From Acidithiobacillales bacterium SM1_46 (GTDB taxonomy: Bacteria > Pseudomonadota > Gammaproteobacteria > Acidiferrobacterales > Sulfurifustaceae), in the NCBI GenBank assembly GCA_001304215.1, contig LJVB01000001.1, positions 1 to 54,650 of the forward strand: a DNA stretch of 54,650 nucleotides, in the 5' to 3' direction. Shown one piece after another: positions 14,347 through 39,927 of the stretch (positions within the stretch are counted from its first letter, which is position 1; each line of letters begins with the position of its first letter). Made by a program: the position numbers and the translations under genes. The notes beneath the pieces were generated by a model, which saw only the letters and a list, made by a program, of their open reading frames with translations, was not told the DNA's origin and did not search any database.

Positions 14347-14616
14347 ATGGATCCGAAAATGCCGTGCCGTATATCTGACGGCCCACAGACACCGGAGGAC
14401 GCCGCTGAATCCTGGGATCGCTGGTTCGGTCAGGAGGACGAGGATGATGCTTACGAGCGCCACCGGCAACACGAGATCGACACCACTGACCGCTGCCCCG
14501 AGTGCAAGGGTCACGGCGCCGATCCACTTTCCGACAACGTCAACTGGCTGCCGTGCAAAACGTGCGGCGGTGATGGACGAGTAGCAAAAGCAACGCGAGG
14601 AGACCGCAATGAATGA
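14347..14616 (+). CDS. small protein with DnaJ-type CxxCxGxG zinc-finger repeats (89 aa; start moved to Met34)
   Basis: Motifs CPECKGHG and CKTCGGDG. ACGCGAGGA lies upstream of the ATG. Confidence 0.6.
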   Translation: MDPKMPCRISDGPQTPEDAAESWDRWFGQEDEDDAYERHRQHEIDTTDRCPECKGHGADPLSDNVNWLPCKTCGGDGRVAKATRGDRNE

Positions 14617-15439: not shown

Positions 15440-16089
15440 TGGACTGCCGCATAGTCACCGTTGAGCAGGGATCCGATGAGTGGTTAGACCTCCGCAGAAA
15501 TCGGATTACCTGCTCCCGCCTCGCCGATGTAATGGCCAAGCCGACAACGAAACGGTATCAGAAATATCGGCATGAGAAAGTCCTCGAGCTCCTCGGTCAC
15601 AAGCATGTCGAGGAGAACCCCGAGTGGGCTCAGCACGGCAGGGAGCACGAGCCTCGTGCGATCGCCGGCTACGAGTTCAAGTACGATGTCGATGTTGAGC
15701 ACAACGTGTTCCTGATCTCGGAGAAATTCGACTGGCTCGCCGGCTCGCCTGACCTCCTGCATCTTCCCAACTACGATGCCGGCGGTGAGGTAAAATGCCG
15801 CGCGCTGTTCAAGAACTACAAGAAGTACCGGGAGATTGCCGAGCAGCACAAAGGCACCACGCGAGCTTGCCCCGCCGAAAACCGGCACCAAGTGCAAGGC
15901 CACATGATGCTGACCGGGTTCTCCTACTGGTGGTTCATCAACTACTACATCGGCGACAACCTCGAAGGCGGCCTCGTGCAGAAGATCCACCGAGTCGCGG
16001 TGCCGAGAGACAACAAGCTGATCGAGCAAATGGAGCACCGCTGTCAGGAATTCATGCTCGAGTGCTATGAACTGGCCGGACTGGCCTAA
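15439..16089 (+). CDS. YqaJ-type (lambda Exo-like) recombination exonuclease
   Basis: The segment QGSDEWLDLRRNRITCSRLADVMA and PD-(D/E)xK-like downstream motifs. The start overlaps the erf stop. Confidence 0.8.
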   Translation: MDCRIVTVEQGSDEWLDLRRNRITCSRLADVMAKPTTKRYQKYRHEKVLELLGHKHVEENPEWAQHGREHEPRAIAGYEFKYDVDVEHNVFLISEKFDWLAGSPDLLHLPNYDAGGEVKCRALFKNYKKYREIAEQHKGTTRACPAENRHQVQGHMMLTGFSYWWFINYYIGDNLEGGLVQKIHRVAVPRDNKLIEQMEHRCQEFMLECYELAGLA

Positions 16090-19130: not shown

Positions 19131-19589
19131 TCAGTTGGCACTGAGGCCCTGCGGAGCGCCCGGAAGCCGGACATCTATCGTCTTGCAGGACTCGTTCGAT
19201 TGCTGCGACTCCTCGCCATTGGTCGCAATGTGTGTCGCCACGTAGCAATGCACCCCGTTCGGCTGGTTCGCGTCCAAGTAAGTAGTTACCGAAGGCGGCA
19301 CCCGCGCGAGCTCCGTGTAGCTGCGAGGATCCGACATGCCAGTGCCGTCGAGCGGGAACGATTGCTTGTAGAGCACCGTCTCCTCGATCTCCTCGACCGG
19401 CATGGCGGTGCCATCCTCGTACTGCGTCGCATTGGTCCACGAAAGATTGACGTCATTGTCAGCCAGGGCAACGCCGGTAATCAGGCCGAGGCCCACCAGA
19501 ATGCTGTAGATCCACGCCTTGAACCGCTGCCACTGCCGGCGACTCCACACCTTGAGCCGCGCCCACCTGTCCGAAATCCAATCCCTCAT
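19131..19589 (-). CDS. signal-anchored protein with fibronectin type III-like domain (152 aa)
   Basis: TM segment IYSILVGLGLITGVALA, then VNLSWTNATQYEDGTAM...YVATHIATNGEESQQS (FN3-like pattern). Confidence 0.55.
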   Translation of the reverse strand: MRDWISDRWARLKVWSRRQWQRFKAWIYSILVGLGLITGVALADNDVNLSWTNATQYEDGTAMPVEEIEETVLYKQSFPLDGTGMSDPRSYTELARVPPSVTTYLDANQPNGVHCYVATHIATNGEESQQSNESCKTIDVRLPGAPQGLSAN

Positions 19590-20035
19590 AGCAGTCTCCG
19601 CACACCGAGAAGTCGGCTCGAAGCATATCGCGAAACCTTGACCGTGTCGCTTTGGTTGCCGCCTAGCACCTCAATGAGAGCGTCGCTCCTGCCGGCGTAG
19701 AAACCCACATGCCCAGGAGCGTCGATGACCTCCGGCCCCGGCTGGTCTCCCTGCCCGCGCTTGAGAATCACGATGTCGAATCCGGGCTCGGCCTGCTCGA
19801 GCGTGATGCCCTTGCCGACACTGAGCCATGAGCGGGCCCGCAGATCCTTGGATCTCGGCAGCCGGAGCAGCCACGCGATGTAGTTCACGAAGGCCGAGCA
19901 CCACGGCACCTCGTCATTCTCAGGCCACGAGTTGTCGAGCTTGAGCATGGCGAGGATCTGCGGGTTATCGACGCTGCCACCGACCTCCTGAATCCCGGTG
20001 AATCGCTGTGCGATGTCGAATGCGGTCACGTTCAT
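19586..20035 (-). CDS. endolysin candidate, NlpC/P60-CHAP type (TIGR02594-like, 149 aa; start moved to Met98)
   Basis: Catalytic-type Cys in VPWCSAFVNY and His in PGHVGFY. GGAGG RBS. ATGA overlap with the upstream gene. Confidence 0.7.
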   Translation of the reverse strand: MNVTAFDIAQRFTGIQEVGGSVDNPQILAMLKLDNSWPENDEVPWCSAFVNYIAWLLRLPRSKDLRARSWLSVGKGITLEQAEPGFDIVILKRGQGDQPGPEVIDAPGHVGFYAGRSDALIEVLGGNQSDTVKVSRYASSRLLGVRRLL

Positions 20036-20352
20036 AGCGTTATCCTCCGGCGCTCCCGCCATGCGATTTCCTCCGCTGTCAGCGGATTGTCTTGGTGCTG
20101 GCGGGCTTCGACCTCGTAGGGATGATTGCGATAGCCGCCCCAAAATGCTCCGTGCCGCAGCCACAAGAGCGCGTAGGAAATCAGAAACCATAGCCGCCCC
20201 TTGCGCTTCACCTGATAGCAATGCTGCAGCTCGTGCCGGTAGTGCCGATCGCTGACCTCGGACTCCTTGAGGCCAAACCACATCCACGACCAGAACACCA
20301 TGCCCCACCCGCGTCGCATCCACCATGCGTTGTAGACGATTCTGAATTTCAT
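20032..20352 (-). CDS. small Trp-rich membrane-associated protein with HExxH...ExEA motif (106 aa; start moved to Met77)
   Basis: Sequence features: MKFRIVYNAWWMRRGWGMVFWSWMWFGL...RHELQHCYQ...NHPYEVEARQH. GGAGGGAG RBS. Confidence 0.6.
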   Translation of the reverse strand: MKFRIVYNAWWMRRGWGMVFWSWMWFGLKESEVSDRHYRHELQHCYQVKRKGRLWFLISYALLWLRHGAFWGGYRNHPYEVEARQHQDNPLTAEEIAWRERRRITL

Positions 20353-24853: not shown

Positions 24854-27800
24854 TTAATCATCCTTGGGGCCTGTAATGTACTCCAATAGCTCCGTGTCGT
24901 CCTCGTCCCAAATTGCATCGAGCACCCGATTGGTCTGCGATGACGGCAAGTGAGTGGCCGTGCCAACCGCATTGACCAGGGCCTTGCGCAGAGCCTCGTC
25001 GGCCTCACCCTGCTCGGCCTGCACCCACACGTTGAACAGATCCTTGGCGAATGCACCGATTGGAGTGCTGCCGCTGCCATACCGCTGACTCGGGATCTCG
25101 CGCACGAACGGGATGCCGCTGACTATCGAGTCTGCCGTGGCGGCCGCCGTCCATTTCGCCCACCGCTTGAGCTCGTCGCCCTCGTCATCCTCCTCCGGCA
25201 GCCTGCCGTAGAGCAGATAGCTGGCAATGCCCTCAACCGTGAACAGCAAGATCATGTCCATCGACCAGTACAAGATCTGCGACGGCTTCCTGAAATTCGT
25301 GTTCTTAGTTTTCTCGTAGGCGATGTTGCCCTTGGCCAGCATGTAGCCAATGAGCGTCGTCCAGATTCGGATGTACTCAGCCTGCCGCGTGTTCTCGCTC
25401 AGGGTGCCGCGCTCGATGTTCGAGCGATCCGTGAAAAAGCCGGAAGTCTGCGCGCCCTCGACGGCCGCATCAGCCATGAGCACTGACTGCTGGTGATTCT
25501 CGCCATCGACATTGCGCGCTTTCTCGTAAGCACCGAGCCACGTAATGACATCGACCACCTTCTGCGCGTACTTGATCGGCAGGAATAGACCGTAGCTGAT
25601 CCGCGTCATGGTCTCCTTGGCGATCGTCGGGGCTGCCCCGAACCACGCATTGAGGTGCGCATCGACGTCCTGCACATCCTTGTGCCATGCGCCTACATCG
25701 TAGCGAGTCCGAATGAAGTCACTGCTCTCGCTGACGTAGTTCCACCATTTCGCGGGGTTCTGCATGAATTTGCCGACACCCATCATCATGCCCTTGGTGC
25801 CGACAAACGCGATCGACTGGAAAAAGCCGGTCCACTGCAGCGCCGTGACGAGCAGGTTCAGGCCAAGCCGTGACTTGGTGAAGCCGCCACGGATCCACCG
25901 CGCGCCCTTCTGGTAGATATTCTGCGCCGGCATCTCACCCACGGCTGCATCAGTCAGCCACAGGTTCAGCGACTTGAGCGCCTCATTGTTGCCGGTGCGT
26001 TTCATCGCGGAGCGGAACCTGCGGTCATTCAGGATCCGCTTGACGAAATTGACCTCATCGCCGATTGCGATGTCGCGAATGATCTCGCGCAAGTGGATGT
26101 CGATGACATTGAGATCGAGCCTGACAACAAGACCTTGCTGGCGTGTGCGCTCGTGCGTAGCGCCGGCACGAGTGCTCGCTGACACGTAGACGCCAGTGCC
26201 GAGCTTCTTGTAGATGTCCTCGAGGCTGTCCTGTTTGACGCGATCCGACAGCTCGTGATCGTACATCAGCGGGTAGTAGCCGCCGCGCACAGTGATCTGT
26301 TTGCCATCGGCGGTGCGTATCTGAAACGGCTGACCCTCGACCTTTGATGGCGCAATGCCACGCCGGCGCTGCTCGGCCTCGCTGAGATCCTTCCAGTAGG
26401 TGTCGATGTAATCCCACACATCCTGCACGAATGCCCAATCCTTCTCGCTGAGCTGCGCGAGAAGCTGGCGCGCTACAGGCTCGGGATACGCAAGCTGACC
26501 GTTGTCGAGTACGCCGCCCAGGAGCGCGCGGCGATTGCCCTCGTTGCCCCAATTGAGCGCCACCGCGATTGCATCAGCCTTGCTGTAAGTGACGCCCTGC
26601 GACTCGATCGTGATGTTTTTCTTGTGGAGCTTGGCGAGATCCTTGGTGCTGTAGTGCTTGAGGTAGATCCCTGACACATCCTCCTGCGCCTTGTGCAGCG
26701 CCGGAATCAATCGCTCGGAGTAGGCCCGCCTGAGCGGCACGATGATGTAGCGCGACACGGCCCCAAAGCCAGCCTTGTCGAGCACCCTCGCGATCGAGCT
26801 CGGCCGCAACCAGTTGGTGATCGCCTGATCCTTCGCCTTGACGACGCCCTGTTTCTTGGTCTTGTGGCCACCGTGCAGCGCGATCTCGGTATTGTTCTCG
26901 AGCACCGATGCCTCGAGCTCCACAGCCACATCATCGAGATTCAGCGTCTCGCCGTTGACGAGGTAATTGTTCATCTCGGCCTGCTTGGCCATGTGCTCAA
27001 GCTGCTTGACGACATCCCGCAGGCCGCGCATCTCCTCGACCGTGAGCTGCTGCCAGTTGACCGTCTCATCGACAATCTTCGCCAGCGTCTCCGGCGTCAC
27101 GATCATGCGACCGTCCTCGACCATGTCGCGGAGATCCTTGAGACGCTCCTCGCGATCGACCTGAGACAGCGACTTCTTGCGCAGATCTACGCCCTCGAGG
27201 ACCGCGTCGATCTGATCGAGGAAACCAGCCTTGCCCATCTGCTGCCGCTTGCGAGGCTTCTCGAATTTCGCGAGATAGTTCCGCGCCTTGGTCATCTCGG
27301 CCTCGGCGCGCACGGCTGCACGATACATCTCGTGATTGATGATCTGCTGCCGCTTGAAGTTGTAGGCCGCCTCCCAATCCTTGCGGGTCGCTGCCTCGAA
27401 TGCCTGCCGTGCCGCCTTGCGCTCGGCTGCGAGGTAGATATGCGGCTTCACCTCACGCACACGACGCCGGCCTATGGCTTCCTTGGCGCCGGCCTTGATC
27501 GCTGCCAGCTCGGCCCGCTTCGGCAGGATGCCACGGTTCGCCGCCTTGGCCTGACGCTCCTCGCGGGCAATACGGCGCTCGGTAGCCCTCACAATGCCCC
27601 TGTCGCGACGCTGCAGGGCCCGTAGCTGCCGCAGCTCGGTCATCAGTACATTCGCCCTGCGCTCGTTGTGGACCGCCTTGAGGGCCGTCTCAGACAGTGT
27701 GCCGTCATGCAGCGGGTCGGGATACCGCTGCCGCATACGGACATCGGTCTCAGCCTCGATCCAATCGGTCATCTTCGGAGCACTGGCCAGCTCGTTCATC

Positions 27801-30800
27801 ATGGCGTGAGCATCCCGGTAGCCGAAGATCCTGGCCGCCTCATTCACATCGACGCCACCCTTGGCCGCGTACACCCACGGCCTCGGGAGCTGGTTGAGAA
27901 ACGTCTGGTCAGGGCCGAGCAGATCGAGCAGCGATTGCTTGTTGATCTTGAACGGCGACATCGTCGGCGCACTGCCATCCGGCTGCGTCCCGCGCTGCAG
28001 CATAAACAGCGCCTTGTAGACGCGCATCTCGTGAGCTTCGGTCTCGACCTCGGCGCGCACCTTTTCGCGCTCGTGCTTCCACCATGCCATCGACTCACGC
28101 TTGAGCGCCTGCAGCACCGTCTGGTGTTCCTTCTCGACGCCCTCGTTGTGGGCGCGCACCAGCTCATTGCGATACACCGCGTAGGCTTCCGGCGACATGC
28201 CGGACTCCTCCTGCGTCATAAACAGCGAGGCGTACTCTTGATGATTCTCGGCGATCGCGATTTCCTCATCGCTCGCCAGCATCCGGTCCATGACGCCACG
28301 GATCTCCGGCGTGAGTACCTGCGCCTTGGGGCCGCCGCGAATGGTGCGGTACACGTTGAGCAGCCATGAGCGGAATGCGTTGAAGGCATCCCGCAGCTTG
28401 ATGCTCGGTGCCTTGCCCTCCATCGTGTAAGCCTCGAATGACTCGGCCCACTTCTCATGGTGCTCGCGCGTGATCTCGTGATAGCTGTCAACGCCGAGAT
28501 AATCGAGGATCGTCTGCCAGTCATCCTTGATCTGCTGCGGCGAGTCAGCCCTCGACGCCAGCGATCCCATGATCTCGAGATAGAGATGGCCGGCCTCGTG
28601 AATGAACGTCGATAGGTTGTGCGACTCGTAGAGACGGATGACACCCTGGCGGGCATTGTTGAACGTGATCGAGCCGCGCTTGCCCTGAAAGAGCTGCTGA
28701 CCGTTCATTACGTTGTTGCGGATCTTGTTGGTCAGATCCATGACATGAACGATCTCTTGCTCGCCGTTGTACTCGTCGAGCTTCGCCTGAGCGACGTCAC
28801 TGGTATCGAACGGACCAGCGCGCCGGCGGCCGTCACGATCGAGGATGTAATACTGCGGCACCTTGGTCGTGGTCCGAGACCACTGGCCATTCGTGTTCTT
28901 GTAGCGCGCGTGATCCAAGACCGTGTCGAGCCGGAATGGCTCGCCATCCTTGGTGCGTACCTGCTGGCCGTTGAGTCGCACTTTCGCGTCGCGGTCGAGC
29001 TTCTTGACAATCTTGCGGAGCTGCTGCGGCACCGTCTTGTCGTAGAAGTTGCGCATCGGCCAGCCCTTGACCTGCATATCATCGCCGGTCAGCGTCACAG
29101 GATACTGGTAGTTGAAGTGATGCTCGGCCTCACGCATGGCCTTATCTTTGTCAGCGAACACCATCAGATCGTGCATGGCTTGGTTGCGCTGAATCGTGTC
29201 GCCGTGCTGCACAACGACATAGGCATCGAGGAACGGCCGTGCCGGATCACCCCATAGCTGCTGCCCAATATCAGCCGCCGCCGGCTCACCCTTATCCATC
29301 TCGGGGAAGCGAATCATGCCGCCGGTCTGCTCGAGGTATTCCCGGCCGGTCATTACCTGAATGGTGCCGCGCTCGAGATTGTTCTCGAAACGCTTGCGCT
29401 GCTCGGTTTCAAGCATCTGAGCCATCTCGGATCCGACATACGTTGCCAGCTTGGCGCGCGGCACCGTCTCCGAGAAGTTGAGCCCTATGCGTCCCTCGCT
29501 GTCCTTCGAGTAGACCTTGAGCTCCTCTTTGACCCAGTTGTACTGCACCTCGTCGGCGTAGGTAGCCAGCGAATTGCGAATGACCTGAGTCTCGCCAGTC
29601 GTCCATGCGACCTGATCGTAGCCTTGCTCGGCTGCCAGCCTGACCATGCGTTTCAGAACGAGATCGACCCACTTGTTGTTCTTGAATGGCGCATCAGGCA
29701 CGGCGTCGATCTGCGCATCGACCATCTCCTTGTGCTTGCCGTGAATGAGTCGCTGCAGGTAGACCTCAGCCTCGAACTGGTCAGCGACCGCACCTTTGCC
29801 GACTGACATCTTGCTCGGCTGGCCGCTTTGATTCGTGCCGTAATAGATCTGCTCACCAGTCTTGGGGTCCAGGGCGATCCACTGAAACTCATCCTGACCG
29901 ACGACGAAATTCGGCGCCGGCGGGATGCCCTCACGGTAGCCACGCTTGCGACCGCGCTGGTGGAGATCCGATTGAATCTCCTCGATGAACAGGATCTTCT
30001 CGCCGTTCGGGCCGATGCGGTCCTTGACCCTCGCCCATCCCATGATGTTCGGATAGTCGAAGTGGCTGAAATCGTAATTCTGCTGCATCCCGACCGGATT
30101 CACTTCCGCGTCGGTCATTGAGTATTCGCGCTTGAACTCGAACCGCAGACCGTAGTCGCCCATTGCCCGCATGAACCAATCGACGTCCTTCTCGAGCAGG
30201 CCATTGAACATCCATCGCTCGTAGCCGTCGCTGGCCTCAACCAGTCGCATCTCGATCTTGCGGCTCAGCGCCTTTTGCACGACTGCATTACGCAGCTCGG
30301 CTGATCCCATGCCGGCGCCCTTGAATTCGCCGGTGTAGAGAATCTGCGCTTCCTGCACCTCGGGCAGCTTGAGGATGATCTCGCGATAGTTACGACCGCC
30401 GCCGAGCGTCTGGTCCTCGTTGATTGAAGCCGGCGCATCGAATGTGCCGGCAGGATCGAGACCGAGGTAATGCTTCTCGATGGCGGCCATCGCATCGTCG
30501 AAGTCTTGCTTGTTGATCGGTGCGTCGATCGGCAGAAACTCGCCATCCTGCTCATTGCGAACCGCGACGTTGCCGGCGTCGTGATCGACCAGCACCTCAA
30601 AAACGTGGCCAGTCTCGCGCTCGGTTACATCCCATATCTCGATGCGACCGTCCATGACGTCATCGAAATCGACCTCCCATTTCTCAGCCGCGAAATCGTA
30701 TGGTGCCGGCTGCGCATCAAGGCTCGGCTGAATCTGCTGACCACCGCCCTGCTGAATTTCCTCAACGACAACGCCATTGGCGCGCACGTAATCGAGCAGC

Positions 30801-31666
30801 TCCTCGCGCGTGACGTTCTCCATGAGATCGAGGTACTCGGGGATCTGCAGCCAAGTGATCTCATCGGCCGTGACTCCCGGTTGCTTCTGCAACCAGCCCA
30901 GGACCGTCTTTGCGTCACCCTTCGGCATCGGCATGGTGCGCACCGCTACCTCGACGGCCGAGTAAAAACCGAGATCCGTGGACTGGTAAAACTGGTTCGG
31001 CCGCTGGCCGGTCATCTCGTCGATCTGATCGACCAGCGCCGCCTCCTGCGGACGCAGCTCGCGCAGTCGATCCCTGATCTTCCGCTGCTGCTCCTCCATC
31101 TTGCGGAAGTTGTTGAACAGCTCGCGCGGGCTATTGCCACGGAGCAGGCCGCCGGCCATCTGCCCCTTTGTCCACATATCGGGATTGGCGAACAGCATGG
31201 CGCTCAGGCGATTCTGCAGCGCGAGATCATCGTTGAGATCTACCGGAGGATCCATGCCCTCGAACGGGCCGGCACCGACGATCGGCGCGCCTCGCTCGGT
31301 ATCAGGATTCAGCGGCGTCCAGTGCTTCACCGTGTCCTTGATCCACTGAATATCGCCGTACTGAATGTCGAGCTCGCGGGACTCCTTTTGCACGGCAGCG
31401 AGATCTTTGCGCAATTGCTTGAGCTGGCCCTCCCGGTACTCGCGGATCTCGCCCAGGACATCAGGACGCTTGCGGATCTCGGCACCGCGATCGCGCGCAC
31501 GACTGGCGATGTCAACGACATCGAACTCAGCCATTGCCAGCATCCGATTGACGGCCTGCGTATCGCTTAGGCCGTCGCGGACCCACTGCTCGAGCAACCG
31601 CTTGTCGCGGTCACTGACCTTGTAGCCAGCCGCCTCGAGTTTGCGTATGCAGTCCCTAACCGCCAT
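24854..31666 (-). CDS. 2270-aa virion-module multidomain (polyvalent-type) protein with a zincin HExxH motif and a C-terminal multi-TM region
   Basis: FIHEAGHLYLE (nt 28586..28600), FIEEIQSDLHQRG (about nt 29957..29990), long charged helical regions, and at least four hydrophobic helices in the last approx. 350 aa. Confidence 0.75.
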   Translation of the reverse strand: MAVRDCIRKLEAAGYKVSDRDKRLLEQWVRDGLSDTQAVNRMLAMAEFDVVDIASRARDRGAEIRKRPDVLGEIREYREGQLKQLRKDLAAVQKESRELDIQYGDIQWIKDTVKHWTPLNPDTERGAPIVGAGPFEGMDPPVDLNDDLALQNRLSAMLFANPDMWTKGQMAGGLLRGNSPRELFNNFRKMEEQQRKIRDRLRELRPQEAALVDQIDEMTGQRPNQFYQSTDLGFYSAVEVAVRTMPMPKGDAKTVLGWLQKQPGVTADEITWLQIPEYLDLMENVTREELLDYVRANGVVVEEIQQGGGQQIQPSLDAQPAPYDFAAEKWEVDFDDVMDGRIEIWDVTERETGHVFEVLVDHDAGNVAVRNEQDGEFLPIDAPINKQDFDDAMAAIEKHYLGLDPAGTFDAPASINEDQTLGGGRNYREIILKLPEVQEAQILYTGEFKGAGMGSAELRNAVVQKALSRKIEMRLVEASDGYERWMFNGLLEKDVDWFMRAMGDYGLRFEFKREYSMTDAEVNPVGMQQNYDFSHFDYPNIMGWARVKDRIGPNGEKILFIEEIQSDLHQRGRKRGYREGIPPAPNFVVGQDEFQWIALDPKTGEQIYYGTNQSGQPSKMSVGKGAVADQFEAEVYLQRLIHGKHKEMVDAQIDAVPDAPFKNNKWVDLVLKRMVRLAAEQGYDQVAWTTGETQVIRNSLATYADEVQYNWVKEELKVYSKDSEGRIGLNFSETVPRAKLATYVGSEMAQMLETEQRKRFENNLERGTIQVMTGREYLEQTGGMIRFPEMDKGEPAAADIGQQLWGDPARPFLDAYVVVQHGDTIQRNQAMHDLMVFADKDKAMREAEHHFNYQYPVTLTGDDMQVKGWPMRNFYDKTVPQQLRKIVKKLDRDAKVRLNGQQVRTKDGEPFRLDTVLDHARYKNTNGQWSRTTTKVPQYYILDRDGRRRAGPFDTSDVAQAKLDEYNGEQEIVHVMDLTNKIRNNVMNGQQLFQGKRGSITFNNARQGVIRLYESHNLSTFIHEAGHLYLEIMGSLASRADSPQQIKDDWQTILDYLGVDSYHEITREHHEKWAESFEAYTMEGKAPSIKLRDAFNAFRSWLLNVYRTIRGGPKAQVLTPEIRGVMDRMLASDEEIAIAENHQEYASLFMTQEESGMSPEAYAVYRNELVRAHNEGVEKEHQTVLQALKRESMAWWKHEREKVRAEVETEAHEMRVYKALFMLQRGTQPDGSAPTMSPFKINKQSLLDLLGPDQTFLNQLPRPWVYAAKGGVDVNEAARIFGYRDAHAMMNELASAPKMTDWIEAETDVRMRQRYPDPLHDGTLSETALKAVHNERRANVLMTELRQLRALQRRDRGIVRATERRIAREERQAKAANRGILPKRAELAAIKAGAKEAIGRRRVREVKPHIYLAAERKAARQAFEAATRKDWEAAYNFKRQQIINHEMYRAAVRAEAEMTKARNYLAKFEKPRKRQQMGKAGFLDQIDAVLEGVDLRKKSLSQVDREERLKDLRDMVEDGRMIVTPETLAKIVDETVNWQQLTVEEMRGLRDVVKQLEHMAKQAEMNNYLVNGETLNLDDVAVELEASVLENNTEIALHGGHKTKKQGVVKAKDQAITNWLRPSSIARVLDKAGFGAVSRYIIVPLRRAYSERLIPALHKAQEDVSGIYLKHYSTKDLAKLHKKNITIESQGVTYSKADAIAVALNWGNEGNRRALLGGVLDNGQLAYPEPVARQLLAQLSEKDWAFVQDVWDYIDTYWKDLSEAEQRRRGIAPSKVEGQPFQIRTADGKQITVRGGYYPLMYDHELSDRVKQDSLEDIYKKLGTGVYVSASTRAGATHERTRQQGLVVRLDLNVIDIHLREIIRDIAIGDEVNFVKRILNDRRFRSAMKRTGNNEALKSLNLWLTDAAVGEMPAQNIYQKGARWIRGGFTKSRLGLNLLVTALQWTGFFQSIAFVGTKGMMMGVGKFMQNPAKWWNYVSESSDFIRTRYDVGAWHKDVQDVDAHLNAWFGAAPTIAKETMTRISYGLFLPIKYAQKVVDVITWLGAYEKARNVDGENHQQSVLMADAAVEGAQTSGFFTDRSNIERGTLSENTRQAEYIRIWTTLIGYMLAKGNIAYEKTKNTNFRKPSQILYWSMDMILLFTVEGIASYLLYGRLPEEDDEGDELKRWAKWTAAATADSIVSGIPFVREIPSQRYGSGSTPIGAFAKDLFNVWVQAEQGEADEALRKALVNAVGTATHLPSSQTNRVLDAIWDEDDTELLEYITGPKDD

Positions 31667-31886: not shown

Positions 31887-32470
31887 GTGCCGTCCGTGTT
31901 GGTGATGTCACGGCCACCGTTGACCGCGTCATCGCCCTCGATTCGATTCTTGCTGTCAGCGGCATCCCTGATCGCATAGCTGCCGTCACCAGCCTGTACC
32001 ACGCGGCCGGCGGCATCAGCACGAATCAGCCTCATCTGCTCAGCGAACGTCTCGTTGTTCTCGATGACGTAGTTGAAGATGTTGGCGATGTCCGCATCAG
32101 AGATCCGACCCTCAATCAAGCCGCCGGAATTCTGCGACAGGATGCGCACCTGATTCGAGGCTGCGACATCGAGGATGTTGTTGTTGGTGCCCTGCAGGGC
32201 GACACCGTACTGACCGTCCTCAAACCTGACGAAATACGGCGGGATAATCAGGAACGCCTGAGCGTAGGTGAAGCCGGAAATCGTGTAGGACGGAAAGTTT
32301 TGCTGCGTGTCAGGCCACGGAATTCCATCGACCGACTTTTCCCAATCCTTGAGATCTCGCCAGAACTGCACTGTGTCGAGCTGCCGAACCTCCGGCGATG
32401 CCTGAATGATCGGCATGTCCGCGCGAGGAACGAAGATCTCGCCGGTGATCGGATCGACACTGATAGCCAT
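31883..32470 (-). CDS. hypothetical virion-module protein (195 aa)
   Basis: ORF track; coupled to its neighbours. Confidence 0.65.
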   Translation of the reverse strand: MAISVDPITGEIFVPRADMPIIQASPEVRQLDTVQFWRDLKDWEKSVDGIPWPDTQQNFPSYTISGFTYAQAFLIIPPYFVRFEDGQYGVALQGTNNNILDVAASNQVRILSQNSGGLIEGRISDADIANIFNYVIENNETFAEQMRLIRADAAGRVVQAGDGSYAIRDAADSKNRIEGDDAVNGGRDITNTDGT

Positions 32471-34137
32471 TACTCGTCACTCACCAGGGTAATCGTCGCA
32501 GCAAGCCCTCCCGCGCCGATGGTGTCGTTGATGTTGGCCGCCTTGTAGACCGGCGATGCCGTGCCCTTGCGCACGTAACCAGTGACCGCCTGCGGCGTCG
32601 AGCCGGCATAGCTCGCTGATACCTGACCGCTCGCATTGGTGATGCCGTAGGTGATGACATCGACACCGCCCGGAGTCGTCTCGAGGAACACCTTGGCACC
32701 CTCGATCGGGCTACCCTCAGTATCGAGCACCGTGATTGTGACCGTCACCGTCTGGTTGATCGTGACCGTGCCTGTATAGCCGCCGGCTACCTCGTAGCTG
32801 AAAGTGCCGACGCCGTTTGTGATGTTGATGGTGACATCGCCATCCAAGGCATTGTCGATGAAAAAGACCGTGTTTCCCGTGGAACCGCCACTGGTCGTCT
32901 CGTAACCATTTACCTCATAGCCGTCGATATTGAATGTCGTCAGGCTGGCCGTGTTGAGGTTGATCTGAATACCGTAGCCAGTGCCATCGGAATTCAGCGT
33001 GATGTTGTCTTGCGCGGAGGGATCGGAATTGCCATCCCACAGAATCGCACCATTGGCATCATTCGAGCCGTTGAACGTCAGCCGATTGCAAGTGAGATCC
33101 TCGAAATACACCTGATCGCAGTTATTGAAAATGCAGTCATTGGCGTACTTGCTCGCGGTGTTCGCCGGGAAAGTGATAGCACCTAGATCGGTGAACGTGA
33201 CTGAATCGAGCTGCAGCGTATTGACATCGGCGCTCGACATATCGAACTGAGCGCGCGTCCCGGTATTGACGATGACCACGTTGTCGAGCACGAAGCTGAT
33301 CGTGTCAGTGGCATTGCCGACAACCCGAAACGGAAAGTGCGTCGCACCTACAGCGCGGCCGCCAGCGTTATCGCCAACCCAAAACCACTGCTCATTTGCG
33401 GCTGAAAAATACGCATCAGCATTGGCTGTCGGCTCACCCCACTCAGTAGGCGCAAAGAACCAATACGATTCGCCGACTGGATTGGCGACCATGCCCCACC
33501 CGTTTGTGACATCGTCGCCCTGCACATCGGCCATCGTCTCGGGAGTGCCGACCGTGCCGCCATTGATGCGCAACGCATAGCTGCCATTGGCGTGATACGT
33601 CATGCGATCGAGGGCTAGGTTCGCGACGTTACCCTGGGCCTTGGCGTTGTGGAATGTGCCGATACCGAATTGAGTTACAGCCGTCTGGTCGAGGTTCGCC
33701 TCGCTACCGGCATAGACCGCAAAGTTTGTTCCCGGCGCTGCGACGATCTCTGAAACATCGAGCTTATAGACGTTGAAGAACGGACCAACAGGCATTCCCT
33801 GTGCATCGTTGCCACCAACGGAATAGCCGATGCGATCGGTGCCGTCGCCAAGAAGGATCTGCACCCCACGATTCGCAAATGTCTGCGGCAATGCGTCCTT
33901 GAGAAGCACGTAGGCCGTGGCGTCACTGAGATCTATATTCAGGCCAGTGCCACCGGAGTCGGTCGTCGTGTAGAGCTCGTCGTCGTTGTTCGAGTGCTGC
34001 GCCCTGACAGCCTGAGTACCCTCGTAAAACTGACCGGCCAGAGGCTCATCAGCGAGTGCGCCGCCGGATGTCGAAAATGTAACTGAGACATCTTCGCAGT
34101 CGTTGATTTCAGTGCGGAGATCCGTGCTCATCGACAC
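32470..34137 (-). CDS. tailspike/fibre-like protein with a C-terminal carboxypeptidase-regulatory-like beta-sandwich (555 aa)
   Basis: Asn/Asp/Gly/Thr-rich beta-helix-like repeats (NDCIFNNCDQVYFEDLTCNRLTFNG). The C-terminus reads VTITVLDTEGSPIEGAKVFLETTPGG...GITNASGQVSASY. Confidence 0.6.
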   Translation of the reverse strand: MSMSTDLRTEINDCEDVSVTFSTSGGALADEPLAGQFYEGTQAVRAQHSNNDDELYTTTDSGGTGLNIDLSDATAYVLLKDALPQTFANRGVQILLGDGTDRIGYSVGGNDAQGMPVGPFFNVYKLDVSEIVAAPGTNFAVYAGSEANLDQTAVTQFGIGTFHNAKAQGNVANLALDRMTYHANGSYALRINGGTVGTPETMADVQGDDVTNGWGMVANPVGESYWFFAPTEWGEPTANADAYFSAANEQWFWVGDNAGGRAVGATHFPFRVVGNATDTISFVLDNVVIVNTGTRAQFDMSSADVNTLQLDSVTFTDLGAITFPANTASKYANDCIFNNCDQVYFEDLTCNRLTFNGSNDANGAILWDGNSDPSAQDNITLNSDGTGYGIQINLNTASLTTFNIDGYEVNGYETTSGGSTGNTVFFIDNALDGDVTINITNGVGTFSYEVAGGYTGTVTINQTVTVTITVLDTEGSPIEGAKVFLETTPGGVDVITYGITNASGQVSASYAGSTPQAVTGYVRKGTASPVYKAANINDTIGAGGLAATITLVSDE

Positions 34138-34526
34138 ACCCTATCGAGCACCAGCGGCAGACATGCTGCGGCAAACATATCTGTGTCCTGCGGTGTTGAG
34201 ATGCGCGCGGCCTGTGCGGCCGGCGTCACGTAGCGACGGAGGTTCTCATCGTAATTGCCGAAGATCACAGCCGGATTTTTCACCGGCTGGATCTCGTCAA
34301 TCGTCTCCCGAGCGCCGGGAATCAGAAAGATCCTGCGCTCCTCGTCGATGTCGGCTATCGCATCTGCAATCCTGTCGAATTCTCGATACGCGCCGCACCC
34401 CGGTACATTTCCGACCATGCGCCAATCCTTAATCTGGTAGGCGGCGATCGTCTGTTTCCACATGCGCCACTCGACGAATAGCTGCTCATCGGTGAAACCA
34501 GACTCCCATACGCCAACAACAATCAC
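34128..34526 (-). CDS. small protein with a SPOUT (TrmL/TrmH)-like sequence pattern (132 aa)
   Basis: The segment RIFLIPGARETIDEI..PAVIFGNYDENL...ARISTPQDTDMFAAACLPLVLD parallels the TrmL pattern LFALT..YLMFGPETRGL...IRIPM...SMNLSNAVSVVVYE. Confidence 0.3.
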   Translation of the reverse strand: MIVVGVWESGFTDEQLFVEWRMWKQTIAAYQIKDWRMVGNVPGCGAYREFDRIADAIADIDEERRIFLIPGARETIDEIQPVKNPAVIFGNYDENLRRYVTPAAQAARISTPQDTDMFAAACLPLVLDRVCR

Positions 34527-36943
34527 TCATCCGGTGTCCGAATCGTCGAGACGGAGAACGGGCCAAAAGTGGTCGTCGTCTTGAACGTCTTGATCGGATT
34601 CGGCGAGCCTCCACGACGCACCGTGACGGCTACCTGCTCGCCAGGGTTAGTCCACGTAGCGGTGTAGCTTTCGTTGCCGCTGCCAGAAACGTGCTCCTTG
34701 TCAATCAGCGCGCGCATCAGGTTATTGCCGATGGTCGCTGTATTCGGAGCCGTGCCTACCAGCGTGAACGTGCCGGTCGTGTTGGTGTAGGAGCTGTACT
34801 CGAGCAGATCGTAGTTGCCATCGGAGTCACGCTCGAGCCGCAGGAAGCCGGCCGCCGGCGTGTTGTTCGGGATGTTGCCTGCGCCTACCACAACGGTCGT
34901 CGATACGCCGCCAGTCACGCCGGCGGTAATCGTCATCTCGTCGAAGTTGGGCTCGGCATCGCCGTTGACGTCGAGCGAGGCACCGTCCCACGGATAAACC
35001 GAGATGCGGTCGCCGATGACAAGGTTTGTGACTGTGCCAGAGCGATTGTCCGGCGGCTGAATCGTGACTTCGAGCAGGTTCGGGAAGCTGTCGCCGGCGA
35101 TCGCGTCGCTCGGGTCGATGGCAATACCGAAATTGGTCTGGAAGTTTGTGCCGGTGAAGTTGCCGACGAACTGGTTGTTGATCGTTCGCGTAGCGACTGC
35201 ACCGTTGACGTCGATCTGATTGCCGGACGTCTTGCCGAAAAGCGTCTGATTGTCGAGCGGCACAACGCCGGTGAGCTGCTGCCCGTAGACGTTGCCGGTC
35301 GTACCCTGGTCGTCGAGTGCGAGCAGGAGGATCTGACCGCTGGCCGTGTTGTTGACTACCGTGCCGGTCGTAGCCGTCCATTCGCCAGCACCGCGCAGCG
35401 TCGTGATCGCCTCGGTGTTGTTGAACTGCCCGAACGGGTCGGCAACGATGATCGTGCCAGTGCCAGCCGTATCATCGACGTAGATGACGCGACCTCGAGC
35501 ACCGCCGGCACCCTCGACCACCTCGCCCTCAGTGACCAGTGTGCCGCTGCCGCCGGTGTACGGGATCTCGGTGCCGTAGGCCAGAACCTCGGGCTCGGTC
35601 AGATTGGCGGTCTCGCCGTCATACGCAAAGTTGCGATTGAAGCCGGTGAATAGCTGAGCGTTGCGACCGAACAGCGTCTCGGCCGTGCCACGGCGCTGAA
35701 TGTACTTGGTGCGCTCGTAAGTCTGCAGCGCACTCGCTGAGCCGAAGTCGATCGACAGGCCGAAAGGTGTCGGGCCCGAACCCTCGTTGAAGTCGAGCGT
35801 CTGGTAGCCCTCGGTGACAACAATCGTGTTGTACGGCGCGCCTGCAACCGTGCCGGCTGCCGTGTTGTTGTTCGAGTCGCCCGAGGAGAACAGGGCGAGC
35901 GACGTTTCGGCGGTGCCGACTGTCGTGAAGCCCTCGAAGTAGGACTCGCCATATTCGAGCAGCTTGCCCTTGATGCGCTGGCCGTCGATAGCGACGCCAT
36001 TCTCGATCGTCTTGACCAGAATTCGGACCTTGCCGGATACCGAATCGGGGAAGTAGGCGTTGTTCCAGTAGTCGGTGATGATCGCGTCCTCTTGAATGAG
36101 GATCGGCCGCGTCGTCGTCAGCGGCGTCGTCACCTGTACGCCAAGGCCCGAGTACAGGGTGCGCGTGTTGCCCGAGCCCTGCTCCACCGAGCCGCCGTAC
36201 ATATGCTGCGCGACCGTATCGTTGATCGTCACCAAGCCAAGCAGTCGGATGATCTGGTCGGTCTGCCGATCCGTCGCGGTCGGGTCGATCATCGAAAGAT
36301 CGTCGTCACCCGCGATGGTCTCGTCATCGTTGAGATCCGACAGGAAGCGATGCAGCTCGAGCGGCGTGTAGCCGCGAGGATGCACCTCACCGTTGACCGT
36401 GCCGTCACCAGCGATGTCGCCAGTGAATGTGTCGTTGTTGACCGGCAGGCCAAAGGTGTCGATCTCGGTGATGAAGCGGACGTCGAGCTCGCCGGTCGCG
36501 CCAGCGTCAGAGACTACCGTGATGACTTCGGCCTGCTGGCCGCCGGAGAACGTGAGGATCTCGCCGGCAACCACGTTCGACGTCTGTCCGTCGAACAGGA
36601 AACTGTGCGTTGCCCCGATGGCGGGGCCGGTCCACGCGATGTCGATGTCGCCGGCCGTGTCTGTGACCGAAACGTCATCGCGCAGGTACGCGGGATAGAG
36701 CAGGAGATTCGAGGTATCGACGTCAGCCGTCACAGCTCCCTGCGTCAGCGTGTCGGCGGCATCCGGCGGGATTGAGCCGTCGATGATGGCAATGGCCAGC
36801 TTGCCGGTCGTCGTCGGAACGCCCGGAATGTCGGAGACGATGAAACCGGAGTCGGCGCCAGCATTCCATGTGACAAAGGCTCCCTCCTCCACAAAGCTAC
36901 CGCCGGCGCGGTTGCTGTAGGTCACGTTGTAGTAAACGGTCAT
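34523..36943 (-). CDS. large virion/tail protein (806 aa)
   Basis: ORF track. Thr/Gly/Asn/Val-rich beta-type composition; sits in the virion module. Confidence 0.7.
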   Translation of the reverse strand: MTVYYNVTYSNRAGGSFVEEGAFVTWNAGADSGFIVSDIPGVPTTTGKLAIAIIDGSIPPDAADTLTQGAVTADVDTSNLLLYPAYLRDDVSVTDTAGDIDIAWTGPAIGATHSFLFDGQTSNVVAGEILTFSGGQQAEVITVVSDAGATGELDVRFITEIDTFGLPVNNDTFTGDIAGDGTVNGEVHPRGYTPLELHRFLSDLNDDETIAGDDDLSMIDPTATDRQTDQIIRLLGLVTINDTVAQHMYGGSVEQGSGNTRTLYSGLGVQVTTPLTTTRPILIQEDAIITDYWNNAYFPDSVSGKVRILVKTIENGVAIDGQRIKGKLLEYGESYFEGFTTVGTAETSLALFSSGDSNNNTAAGTVAGAPYNTIVVTEGYQTLDFNEGSGPTPFGLSIDFGSASALQTYERTKYIQRRGTAETLFGRNAQLFTGFNRNFAYDGETANLTEPEVLAYGTEIPYTGGSGTLVTEGEVVEGAGGARGRVIYVDDTAGTGTIIVADPFGQFNNTEAITTLRGAGEWTATTGTVVNNTASGQILLLALDDQGTTGNVYGQQLTGVVPLDNQTLFGKTSGNQIDVNGAVATRTINNQFVGNFTGTNFQTNFGIAIDPSDAIAGDSFPNLLEVTIQPPDNRSGTVTNLVIGDRISVYPWDGASLDVNGDAEPNFDEMTITAGVTGGVSTTVVVGAGNIPNNTPAAGFLRLERDSDGNYDLLEYSSYTNTTGTFTLVGTAPNTATIGNNLMRALIDKEHVSGSGNESYTATWTNPGEQVAVTVRRGGSPNPIKTFKTTTTFGPFSVSTIRTPDE

Positions 36944-36953
36944 CCTTGAACCC

Positions 36954-37355
36954 CTAGTTTAGTGTCTCGCCTCTTGGCTGAGCAGTGATTGAATCTATGT
37001 AGCCCCTGCCGTCCCGCTTCACATCGAAAAAATAGGCGACCCGAGAGCGATGCTCCTGGGCCGCCTGAATTTCCTCTAGCACGGAGCGGAGGGGAGTCAG
37101 GTCAACATTCACGACTGCATTATTCAGTCGCTTGTCACGAATCAGTGCTTGCAGGGTTGCCAGCACCTCGAGCTGAGTCTGTGAGCGGGCAAGATCGGCG
37201 CGGGCGCGCTCCTCCTGGGCTGCGATGAGCCTGTCAAGTTTATCGACAAGCTGGTCGAACTGCTCGATCTTGGTGATTTCGCGCTCGTATTCGACCTCAG
37301 CGCCATCTTCCTCGAGCTCATCGAGCTCCCGCAGAGAGATAGTCTTTTCAGCCAC
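36954..37355 (-). CDS. acidic coiled-coil protein (133 aa)
   Basis: ORF track. Heptad-like Glu/Leu/Ala-rich sequence. Confidence 0.6.
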   Translation of the reverse strand: MAEKTISLRELDELEEDGAEVEYEREITKIEQFDQLVDKLDRLIAAQEERARADLARSQTQLEVLATLQALIRDKRLNNAVVNVDLTPLRSVLEEIQAAQEHRSRVAYFFDVKRDGRGYIDSITAQPRGETLN

Positions 37356-39927
37356 TTACGCAATCTCGCAGCTTTTTGAGCAAGTTTCGACGCTCAACTG
37401 CTGCGTCAAATCTCCGTTGTGCAGCAACTTTCAATTCAGCCACCTTGCCCGTTTCCCTGACGCGAACTCTATCAGTAAATGTTAAATCGCCAAAGTCCTG
37501 CCGCTCCCAAATATCGGGCATGTGGTCCATTACCTGCTGCACGAGGTGGTCCACACCGTATTGCTCGTCCTGCATCGTATCCACGGAGTCGAGCAGGCCA
37601 ACCAGCTCGACGAGCTGCTGAAAGCTGAGATCGTCCATCTGATCGAAGGTGTCGAGCGCATCGAGTGCCTCACGCACCTCCGCATTGGTCATGGTGTTCA
37701 GATCGAGGCCGGCCTCGCCAATGAGCGCCTCGAGCTCATCGAGACGCCGCTGCATCTCCATCGCCTGCGGGTCAGCGTCAGGCCCGAGAACGGGCTTACC
37801 GCCGATCTCGTCCCGTATGGCCTCCACGAGCAGGTTCTCGTCGCGTGACGCAATGTAGCCCGCCTCAGCGGCCTTTTCCGCTGCCGTGGCCAATGTCATG
37901 CCGTCCCGCTTCACCAGCCCCCTGATCGCCTTACCGGCGTCCATAGCCGACAATTCGCCACCCTCGTCCATGACACCGCCAGCTTTGCGCAGGAACTCGC
38001 TCAGTCTGGTGCCGAACAAGTCTTGCTCCTTGGGGCCGGTGCCCTCCCGCAGCATGTTGATGTACGGATCTACATAGGCGTCGATGTCCTTGTCGGTATG
38101 TGCGTCAGCGAGAACCCGACGCACTCCACCAAAGAATTGCTTGTAGAGCTGCATCGGATCCTCGCCGGCGCGACGCGCCAGATTCGGAATGCCGCGCATG
38201 ATCTCGGCCGTTGTCCTGGCCGTCTGCGGGTCGAACGCATCCGTGGCGACAAGCTGGTTCACGACATCGTTGATGATCTGCTCATCGACATCCTGCTCAG
38301 GATCGAGGATCTTCGCCGCCAGCTCCTCGAGCTCGGAGATCATGGCTGGCTTGTTTTTATCGTAGAGATCGGCCTCGTGCGCCGACATCTGCGTCTCGGG
38401 GTCGCTGGTGATGTGCTTCTGGAAAAACTGGTGATGCTCGGTTCCAGCTATTTTCGTGGCGTAGTCGTTTATCGGGATCTCAACCGTGCCGCCGCGTTCG
38501 CGCGCCAGCTCAATATCTTCCTTCTTGACGTTGAGATGCGCCGCCACCTCGTCAGGATCGTGGCCCTTCTCCTGCCAGTATTGATCGAACTGCTCGACAT
38601 CGACATGCAGCGATTGCACATCGCCATCGGCCGTCACGCGGCTGACGAAGTCCTGATAGGTTTTCGGCACCTCCTGCCGCAGCCGTGACGCTTCGGCCGA
38701 GTCGCCGAGTGCCTGATACACGAGCTCCATCTGTTTCGCGCGGCGCGCTTTCATGCCGTCACGGATGATGGTGGTGGTGCCGCCGGCGCCGGCAAGCAGC
38801 ACCGTGCTTTTCATGGTCTCGGCTGCAATGGCGCCGATGCGCTCGATAACCTGCTCGCGGGTCAGGTAGTCGTCGCGATCGTTCATGTACTTGAGGGCCT
38901 CACCGCCGGCCATCGTCACCGACTCCTGAAAGATCTCAGTCGCGATCTCGGACGTCATGCCGATGCCGAAATCCTTGGTGCCCTGCCACACGGCGTCGCG
39001 GAACGTCTTGCGCTTGAGCGCGTCTGCAACGACCTCCTTGGCGAGCTGACCTTTGATCTCCCTGATCCCCGGCAGCTTTGACAGCAATACGCCGCCGCCA
39101 AGGGCTTCGGCCGCACCGCCGAGATTGCCGACAATGGTCGCGGCCCAGGCTGCGTCCTCGTGACTGAAACCCATCTCTCGATATTCTAGGTAGGCATGAC
39201 CGCCCTCCTGCGTCTCTGAGTAGCTGAATGCGCCGGCACCGAAGCCGATCGTCAGGCCGCTTGACCAGCCGGCCAACATGCCGGGGCCCGCGCCGACGAC
39301 CGGAAAGATCGTGCCGCCAGTGATGGCGCCAGTCGTGGCGCCCACAGTGCCGCCGACCATTGCGCCTTTCGCGCCCGACTCCCACGCGCCAATGAAATTC
39401 GCCGATTGCTTGGTCAGCGCAACGACCAGCGAGTGAATGCCGGAGGTGTCGAAATCGTGGTCAACGCTATACTTCTTGAGCTCCTTGATGCGCTCCTCGT
39501 CACCGGGAAGAAACACACCTTCCTGCTGGCGGGCGCCAATCTCGCCGAGCTCCTGCATTGCCCACGAGTGATGCCACGCCTGCTGAATCGGCCGAAAGGC
39601 GCGCTCCATGCGCGTGAGGTTCTCCTTGTCGGCCTTGAGCACGGAAAGGTGATACGGATTGTCGGCCGCAAACTCGAGCCACTTCGGATTGCTGTCGCGG
39701 TACTGATCGGGGTCGAACTTCCGCATCTCGACGAGCTGACTGATATTGTCGAAGTCAGCGTCGATGACCTCGAGCGGCAAACCAGTCTGCCCACCGAGCT
39801 CGAGGATCCTCGAGGCGCGGTTCGGCTCGACGTTGACCGCGTTACCGGCCGCGAGCCGCTGGCGCTGCTCCTCCTCCCGCTTGACCTCGGAGTAGTCGCG
39901 GAGCTCGGGGAGGTAGCTCTCGGGCAT
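37348..39927 (-). CDS. internal virion/ejection protein candidate with a Gly-rich hydrophobic segment (859 aa)
   Basis: The segment GGTVGATTGAITGGTIFPVVGAGPGMLAGWSSGLTIGFGAGAF. The remainder is acidic and helical. Confidence 0.6.
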   Translation of the reverse strand: MPESYLPELRDYSEVKREEEQRQRLAAGNAVNVEPNRASRILELGGQTGLPLEVIDADFDNISQLVEMRKFDPDQYRDSNPKWLEFAADNPYHLSVLKADKENLTRMERAFRPIQQAWHHSWAMQELGEIGARQQEGVFLPGDEERIKELKKYSVDHDFDTSGIHSLVVALTKQSANFIGAWESGAKGAMVGGTVGATTGAITGGTIFPVVGAGPGMLAGWSSGLTIGFGAGAFSYSETQEGGHAYLEYREMGFSHEDAAWAATIVGNLGGAAEALGGGVLLSKLPGIREIKGQLAKEVVADALKRKTFRDAVWQGTKDFGIGMTSEIATEIFQESVTMAGGEALKYMNDRDDYLTREQVIERIGAIAAETMKSTVLLAGAGGTTTIIRDGMKARRAKQMELVYQALGDSAEASRLRQEVPKTYQDFVSRVTADGDVQSLHVDVEQFDQYWQEKGHDPDEVAAHLNVKKEDIELARERGGTVEIPINDYATKIAGTEHHQFFQKHITSDPETQMSAHEADLYDKNKPAMISELEELAAKILDPEQDVDEQIINDVVNQLVATDAFDPQTARTTAEIMRGIPNLARRAGEDPMQLYKQFFGGVRRVLADAHTDKDIDAYVDPYINMLREGTGPKEQDLFGTRLSEFLRKAGGVMDEGGELSAMDAGKAIRGLVKRDGMTLATAAEKAAEAGYIASRDENLLVEAIRDEIGGKPVLGPDADPQAMEMQRRLDELEALIGEAGLDLNTMTNAEVREALDALDTFDQMDDLSFQQLVELVGLLDSVDTMQDEQYGVDHLVQQVMDHMPDIWERQDFGDLTFTDRVRVRETGKVAELKVAAQRRFDAAVERRNLLKKLRDCVSG

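Follow-up and report, generated by a model that had tools for sequence, protein, structure and literature searches.

The stretch of DNA analysed here (hereafter the window) comprises 54,650 nucleotides (nt) of contig LJVB01000001.1 from Acidithiobacillales bacterium SM1_46, and our subject is the giant protein of 2270 amino acids (aa) that is encoded by the largest open reading frame (ORF) in the window. Positions 1-94 are an exact repeat of 54557-54650 (a 94-bp end overlap), and these identical ends indicate that the window holds an entire phage genome, about 54.56 kb long (54,556 bp) and either circularly assembled or terminally redundant. Its structural arm lies entirely on the minus strand, where the terminase, the portal (51748-53379), the capsid region and tail tube A and B (44494-47268) are followed by ORFs of 199, 365, 260, 617, 859, 133, 806, 132, 555, 195 and 76 aa, and the 76-aa ORF is followed by the giant gene, the fibre gene and the lysis cluster. 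The giant gene is the largest in this internal-protein cassette, which is expanded by several extra ORFs, and it stands directly upstream of the fibre gene. Its ATG forms an 11-nt overlap with the stop codon of the 76-aa ORF and is preceded at 5 nt by AAGGA, while a gap of 2 nt leads to the ATG of the fibre gene; thus, the tight translational coupling within the structural cluster that had been claimed in a first-pass annotation, made from the letters alone, is real. The same annotation had recorded the size and place of the ORF, a single HExxH at aa 1023, a block running NIMGWARV...SDLHQRG and an Arg/Glu/Ala/Lys-rich helical region, and all of these are found in the protein. We show below that the giant protein, whose parts are listed in Table 1, is one ordinary example from a family of polyvalent phage proteins that is very large and has been catalogued before.

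Table 1 Features of the giant gene and of neighbouring genes, in window coordinates
Feature	Position	Strand	Basis or remark
Complete 2270-aa ORF (leader, exchangeable insert, constant C-module)	24854..31666	minus	PHROG 9880 match
N-terminal leader, aa 1-228, helical and charged, conserved in the close clade only	30983..31666	minus	BLASTP
Exchangeable insert, aa ~229-985, unnamed conserved domain	28712..30982	minus	Metagenomic homologues
Core motif block NIMGWARVKDRIGPNGEKILFIEEIQSDLHQRG, aa 540-572, predicted beta-hairpin then helix	29951..30049	minus	AlphaFold2
HExGH domain, aa 986-1155, first part of the C-module	28202..28711	minus	Invariant columns, AlphaFold2 secondary structure
HEAGH (H1023, E1024, H1027)	28586..28600	minus	Alignments
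E1071...E1078 (HEKWAESFEAY), 44-51 residues past H1027, candidate for the third metal ligand	28433..28456	minus	Alignments
Long helical region, aa 1156-1580	26927..28201	minus	Composition, AlphaFold2
Conserved middle region, aa 1581-1900, motifs ALNWGNEGN and GGYYPLMYD	25967..26926	minus	Alignments
C-terminal region enriched in hydrophobic segments, aa 1901-2270	24857..25966	minus	Hydropathy
Family-conserved hydrophobic helix, aa 2131-2156, then acidic cluster	25199..25276	minus	Hydropathy 1.53 (family mean), alignment A2
Tail-fibre gene, 1496 aa	20361..24851	minus	ATG 2 nt after the TAA stop of the giant ORF
859-aa gene, counterpart of the N-terminal (LPD22) part of BPP-1-type giants	37348..39927	minus	PHROG 9880 profile positions 268-726
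Replication/recombination arm genes	2494-3438, 9592-11145, 11106-11888, 14609-16089		DNA methyltransferase, helicase, ParB-like protein, Erf and exonuclease pair

Local BLAST and Pfam searches divide the protein into a leader of about 228 aa, an insert of about 760 aa and a C-module of about 1,285 aa (aa ~986-2270), and it is the C-module that ties the protein to other phages. The profile of PHROG 9880, a family of unknown function, matches aa 984-2254 on its positions 933-2205 of 2231 with an expectation value (E) of 2.6e-274. Searching with tblastn returned 50 phage records, which are 25-35% identical to the protein and in every case match it over aa ~954-2270 only, and these include Xanthomonas/Xylella CP2-like phages, Bordetella BPP-1 (Bbp10), Caulobacter phages, Pseudomonas AF, Vibrio and Cobetia phages, cyanophages and Octadecabacter OANV1. 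When aa 981-2270 were used as the query, the metagenomic homologues fell into two clades, a close one with 49-56% identity and a distant one with up to 35%. The leader is shared with the close clade, in which the first ~180-220 aa of many proteins are 25-37% identical to it by BLASTP. Between leader and C-module there is a slot whose content differs from relative to relative: "minimal" relatives (1464-1502 aa) have nothing there, the leader being fused straight to the C-module, and others carry HATPase_c (aa 247-366 of P0110), RadC (aa 290-399 of P0124), ART-PolyVal (aa 512-665 of P0116) or the present insert domain at 28-35% identity (e.g., P0125 and P0128). Judged from these alignments, the protein follows a three-part grammar of leader, cargo slot and chassis, in which the front domain is exchangeable and the rear module is constant.

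The strongest evidence for a constant rear unit behind a payload came from the HExGH domain, with which the C-module begins. A profile of this domain (168 positions) was searched against 1.84 billion cluster representatives and matched 11,894 clusters at E up to 0.001, of which 5,972 were at E up to 1e-30. In the 138 top representatives, the domain starts at a median of 1,265 aa from the C-terminus with an interquartile range of 1,241-1,279, and the N-terminal extension before it varies from 10 to 2,303 aa; this fixed distance behind a variable front indicates that the rear 1,270 aa are a single constant unit and that the front is a payload. Six of these 138 representatives, all metagenomic (P0243, P0244, P0247, P0249, P0251 and P0304), contain the domain more than once, with two to four copies in proteins of up to 4,793 aa, which echoes the multi-copy metallopeptidase domains described for polyvalent proteins.

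The gene order of the window recurs in its relatives. The giant gene stands immediately before the fibre gene in BPP-1, CP2, OANV1, SR18, AF, a Vibrio phage and a 57-kb metagenomic relative, and in the inspected phage relatives tail tube A and B are followed by small internal virion proteins (one or two), a transglycosylase protein of about 700 aa, the giant and the fibre. This is the position of gp16 in T7. The phage homologues carry Pfam polyvalent domains, namely LPD22 at the N-terminus plus PBECR1, ART-PolyVal or LPD23, and GGDEF, zeta toxin, HATPase_c and RadC are found in addition among the metagenomic homologues. LPD22 stands in front in the distant clade, together with an ADP-ribosyltransferase (ART), PBECR1, GGDEF, zeta toxin and others, and was found by Pfam neither in the giant ORF nor in its close clade. 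Polyvalent proteins of phages and conjugative elements were described by Iyer, Burroughs, Anand, de Souza and Aravind (2017; PMC5512222), and the present protein resembles them in being giant and multidomain, in its virion-gene context, in having an HExxH domain as a recurring hub and in the shuffling of effectors between orthologues. It differs from them in that the ~1,100 aa behind the HExGH domain form one constant unit and not a chain of separate domains. A further difference is that no Pfam polyvalent-protein model, MPTase-PolyVal included, matched the giant itself, either over the whole 2270 aa or in seven overlapping 400-aa pieces (E up to 10), and the Pfam search gave nothing else credible; NCBIfam gave only noise, and the PDB, searched by sequence with the protein itself and with profiles of the C-module and of the insert, yielded no more than a weak hit to an uncharacterised entry, designed helical repeats and fragments of EF-hands. 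The first-pass proposal of a polyvalent giant in the virion module is thus upheld by homology and gene order, but not by a Pfam polyvalent model on the giant itself. We regard the protein as polyvalent on comparative grounds, since its virion-gene context and the variation of effector architectures between orthologues are those by which such proteins are recognised, and the protein itself probably has two enzymatic regions, both conserved and both without a Pfam name.

We consider it rather probable that the giant is a phage polyvalent protein that serves, most likely, as an internal virion (ejection) protein of a podophage with a T7-like structural cassette, and homology and gene order together support its assignment as a polyvalent giant of the virion module. 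Position in the structural module would by itself fit an internal, an external or an assembly role equally, and the long helical region is like scaffolds or tape-measure-like proteins in composition, so that one might think of a late-expressed scaffolding or length-determining factor that is not packaged, or of an external tail component. We hold this to be very unlikely, because enzymatic cargo such as the ART, RadC, zeta toxin and GGDEF domains, which relatives carry on this module, would be pointless in a protein that does not reach the host cytoplasm, and because the position of the gene is that of the internal-protein genes of T7 and BPP-1. If the giant is an internal virion protein, the C-module may act as a chassis that packs the protein into the head and expels it through the tail ahead of the DNA, and the ejected module would then take part in the ejection complex at its inner-membrane or cytoplasmic end, the job that gp16 does in T7 (no homology is detectable between the two). 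The insert would be an enzyme delivered into the cell at the start of infection; the slot is filled in sister phages by an ADP-ribosyltransferase, a RadC/JAB domain or a GHKL ATPase. A role of the delivered protein against host defence is conceivable.

Among the named relatives, Bbp10 of BPP-1, gp25 of CP2 and gp16 of AF are homologous to the C-terminal ~1,285 aa from end to end (26-35% identity), including the HExGH, the glutamates, the GGYYP.YD motif and the C-terminal hydrophobic helix. The difference lies in front: giants of the Bbp10 type start with LPD22 and about 700 aa, whereas the giant described here starts with the clade-specific leader and the unnamed insert. By description, the protein can also be likened to gp47 of phi24B, a 2,811-aa podophage polyvalent protein that proteomics detected in virions and for which a role in ejection was proposed (bioRxiv 10.64898/2026.04.10.717836), which differs in its domain set of LPD5, LPD1, LPD38 and MuF-C.

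The sequence FIHEAGHLYLE (aa 1021-1031) contains the sole HExxH of the protein, HEAGH at aa 1023-1027. About 0.064 such motifs would be expected by chance from the composition, and the HExGH is invariant in 7 phage homologues and in 42-53 metagenomic homologues, with HExxH kept in 144 of 146 domain copies of the top representatives; this conservation indicates that the motif is no chance occurrence. H1023, E1024, H1027 and E1071 are invariant in every alignment, and E1078 is invariant in alignments A2 and A4, while in A3 at least 90% of the sequences have it. In the AlphaFold2 model of aa 981-1345, which has a predicted local distance difference test score (pLDDT) of 81.8, short strands are followed by the HEAGH helix (1018-1037), a second helix and a third helix (1067-1083) that carries E1071 and E1078. 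The invariant H-E-H together with E1071/E1078 and the predicted order of elements fit a small gluzincin. The spacing of 44 residues between H1027 and E1071 is similar to that in anthrax lethal factor. On our preferred reading, the domain would be a small zincin-like metallopeptidase, which may cut the polypeptide after ejection and release its front part.

The main rival accepts the chassis and a packaged ejection component, and takes the HExGH as a structural or regulatory metal site in a polypeptide that acts uncut, like the virion RNA polymerase (vRNAP) of phage N4. The C-terminal domain of N4 gp50 consists of C1 (residues 2124-2375), which contains an HExxH, and C2 (2376-3500), which is helical and has no structural relatives (PMC13434306), and N4 vRNAP is packaged unprocessed in spite of its HExxH domain (PMC5512222). 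The layout of our protein is the same, as an HExxH subdomain is followed by ~1,100 helical residues without structural relatives, and both stand behind a large N-terminal payload in an ejected giant, although the payload here is no RNA polymerase. Moreover, hhalign places the HExGH and the downstream stretch E..A...E..G..P...F..F.aW on N4 residues 2212-2316, and no peptidase fold was recovered for the domain. The similarity is nevertheless not significant: the domain-level score of 19.8 corresponds to P of about 0.03 against a shuffled-column null with a mean of 13.4, a standard deviation of 2.2 and a maximum of 21.1 in 60 trials, the whole-module probability is at most 1%, and HMMER gives 2-6 bits. 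The alignment of the motifs is consistent, and it serves as a lead only. The invariant glutamate in the HExxH and the conserved downstream glutamates are the classic catalytic arrangement of gluzincins, and an exchangeable enzymatic cargo makes a release step attractive, so we judge the uncut form to be unlikely and keep the ejected metallopeptidase as our preferred reading. A wider conjecture can be built on the same lead, namely that the ~1,270-aa module and the C-terminal domain of N4 vRNAP are one ancient ejection chassis, that it bears interchangeable payloads in thousands of podophage lineages, and that the payload here belongs to an unrecognised enzyme family (R428, E429, H535, N540, R546, E563, Q565, S566, D567) that acts at the very onset of infection on some target in the host, perhaps a defence system. 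We rate this as quite unlikely; if it were true, the chassis would carry an RNA polymerase in N4 and ADP-ribosyltransferases, nucleases, RadC and GHKL ATPases elsewhere.

The insert of our protein is itself a conserved domain. A search with aa 1-990 found 109 metagenomic proteins that have aa ~228-760 plus a block at aa ~857-985, among which R428, E429, H535, N540, R546, G555, L559, E563, Q565, S566 and D567 are invariant and the motifs GGxNYREI, HxxxxNxxxHxRxxDR...ILxxEEIQSDWHQ, PDAPFKxxW...KR and GxxMxxFYD are conserved, and such a pattern of conserved polar residues is typical of enzymes. Some of the homologues are fused to ART-PolyVal, LPD1, LPD23 or a DNA methylase. The AlphaFold2 model of the insert is mediocre (pLDDT 68.6), and Foldseek found no significant match for it in the PDB; the top 50 were mostly weak GNAT acetyltransferases over short stretches (best E 0.14), a resemblance that offers a lead but no assignment. 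The domain is encoded by 2 of 50,697 phage records and by none of the plasmids, which makes it essentially absent from cultured phages and plasmids and a candidate for a new injected enzyme. In two other, unrelated phage contigs, the gene of an insert-domain protein lies between the large terminase and the portal (L009, 10001-12673; L010, 7509-11333), and in L010 the domain occupies the C-terminal half of a 1274-aa protein. The interval between terminase and portal is the usual place of head-internal proteins, and these two genes give the insert domain an independent virion context.

The insert domain also forms part of PHROG 7348, a giant profile of 2,564 positions labelled "endolysin", and although the match is weak, it raises the question of whether the protein is a virion-associated lysin whose HExGH domain cuts peptidoglycan peptides and so degrades the cell wall. 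Homologues of the giant are labelled "lysin", "lysis protein" and "lysin containing a beta/gamma crystallin motif", and the authors of the phi24B study proposed a peptidoglycan role for the metallopeptidase of gp47. However, the "lysin" labels derive from the annotation of a short motif and from no assay, and Pfam and NCBIfam found no lysozyme, transglycosylase, amidase or peptidoglycan-peptidase family in the protein. The transglycosylase of the relatives is a separate adjacent protein, such as bbp11, and the phage of the window has a separate lysozyme-like gene (19586-20326). A lysin is therefore highly improbable in our view, and an ejected enzyme remains the function that we favour for the insert.

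Behind the HExGH domain, the C-module continues with a long helical region in which R, E, K and A make up 49-50% of aa 1301-1500 with a net positive charge, and AlphaFold2 predicts long helices from about aa 1160 onward. Near the C-terminus, the claim of at least four hydrophobic helices in the first-pass annotation holds at low stringency, as the last 370 aa contain four segments above a Kyte-Doolittle value of 0.9 over 15 residues versus 0.78 expected from the rest of the protein, but it fails at higher stringency, as only aa 1938-1956 and 2131-2156 reach 1.3 over 19 residues and none reaches 1.6. The two hydrophobic strings quoted in that annotation lie at aa 1938-1956 and 2131-2153. A hydropathy survey of 226 family members with a complete module (19-residue windows, last 400 aa) gave a median of the maximum hydropathy of 1.70, with 67% of the members at 1.6 or above. 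The place of the most hydrophobic window is fixed, with a median distance of 146 residues to the C-terminus, and the equivalent stretch in our protein is aa 2131-2156; in the ~870 aa ahead of the last 400, none of the 226 members reaches 1.6. The conservation of a helix of transmembrane grade across the family supports the presence of a membrane-interacting helix, which could insert into the membrane or help to form a conduit.

In these properties the protein is comparable to T7 gp16, which is likewise the largest protein of its cassette, encoded just before the fibre, soluble-looking, mostly helical and moderately hydrophobic near its C-terminus (maximum 1.44 versus 1.36 here). The putative membrane regions of T7 gp16 have hydropathies of 1.30-1.44 and lie near the C-terminus (PMC8954989), and the segments of the giant are no more hydrophobic than these. 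The differences are that Pfam and NCBIfam found no transglycosylase domain in the giant and that the description of T7 gp16 mentions no HExxH. Another precedent invoked by the first-pass annotation was DarB of phage P1, which is also a large packaged protein acting on entry. DarB is a methyltransferase-helicase fusion. No DNA methyltransferase or helicase domain was matched by Pfam in the giant protein, and a homology to T7 gp16 and gp15 was rejected, as mentioned below.

Several results weigh against the interpretation of the giant as an ejected, membrane-inserting metallopeptidase with enzymatic cargo. In a limited literature search, we found no experimental evidence for members of the family in virions. 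The hydrophobic segments of the giant are weak, with a maximum Kyte-Doolittle value of 1.36 and summed Hessa energies of +4.8 to +6 kcal/mol, and soluble virion proteins of the same phage reach similar hydropathy. The profile of the module shows no similarity to T7 gp16 or gp15 (hhalign probabilities of 0.6% and 1.9%), and no T7 chain appeared in the PDB profile search. A zincin fold around the HExxH had been named in the first-pass annotation as one of the points on which its reading would turn, and it could not be confirmed, because Foldseek of the HExGH model against the PDB (best E 0.42, no peptidase in the top 50), the PDB sequence profile and Pfam (MPTase-PolyVal, searched also with the 400-aa pieces) were all without a match, and Foldseek against BFVD found only unannotated pieces of the same family. 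Self-cleavage does not follow from an HExxH in any case, as is clear from the unprocessed packaging of N4 vRNAP (PMC5512222). For the insert, Pfam and NCBIfam gave no match and the PDB profile search was empty, so that it has no assignable fold or function. Packaging, ejection, insertion into the membrane, peptidase activity with self-cleavage and an anti-defence role are accordingly put forward as what the giant may do, while its membership in the family stands on homology and gene order.

The importance of the protein lies in the size of its family and in its architecture. At least ten thousand distinct phage lineages encode giants with the HExGH module, and for the conserved 1,270-aa module there is neither a Pfam model nor a solved structure; a limited literature search found no experimental study of it. 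Three things are worth keeping, namely the grammar of leader, slot and chassis, the sheer number of family members and the payload domain without a name. A survey of what fills the slot could yield a list of enzymes selected by phages for injection, and the invariant HExGH…E site is the obvious place to ask whether the cargo is released by self-cleavage.

The 859-aa gene of the cassette is a counterpart of the front of BPP-1-type giants. Its product scores 27.1 bits for LPD22, just below the cut-off, and its aa 411-755 match the interior of CP2 gp25 and Bbp10. The gene lies six ORFs upstream of that for the giant, an arrangement that recurs in the 57-kb metagenomic relative. Because this ORF corresponds to the front part of the giants of BPP-1 and CP2, the giant gene of those phages is either split here, with six ORFs in between, or fused there. 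The same 57-kb relative (L007) also encodes homologues of the 859-, 133- and 555-aa ORFs. The ORFs of 806, 617 and 555 aa (34523-36943, 39927-41780 and 32470-34137, minus strand) have no match in PHROG, Pfam or NCBIfam; the one exception is an Ig-like (Big_1) match of the 555-aa ORF, which lies close to its C-terminus and stays below the threshold. A transglycosylase-containing protein like bbp11 was not detected in the internal-protein cassette of the window. The ORFs of 199 aa (43623-44222, minus) and 260 aa (41780-42562, minus) after tail tube B have one N-terminal hydrophobic segment each, with hydropathies of 1.71 and 1.60, and are candidates for small gp13/gp14-like internal or membrane proteins.

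At the level of the whole genome, megablast of the right half of the window (30000-54650) found no close cultured phage, and a scan of representative genomes gave matches only in two metagenome-assembled contigs, one in a Phycisphaerales bin and one in an Acidobacteriota bin. No tRNA gene was found anywhere in the window. A terminase-like ORF (53621-54619) spans the circular junction, and the genes for replication and recombination form an arm of their own (Table 1). The fibre contains an internally repeated segment at aa ~333-394, 527-630, 895-967 and 1301-1343. An N-terminal domain similar to PHROG 2647 is present both in the fibre and in the 365-aa ORF (42529-43626, minus), and aa 8-159 of the latter are 40% identical to the N-terminus of the fibre of L007; this common domain suggests that the two are appendage proteins with a shared attachment domain.

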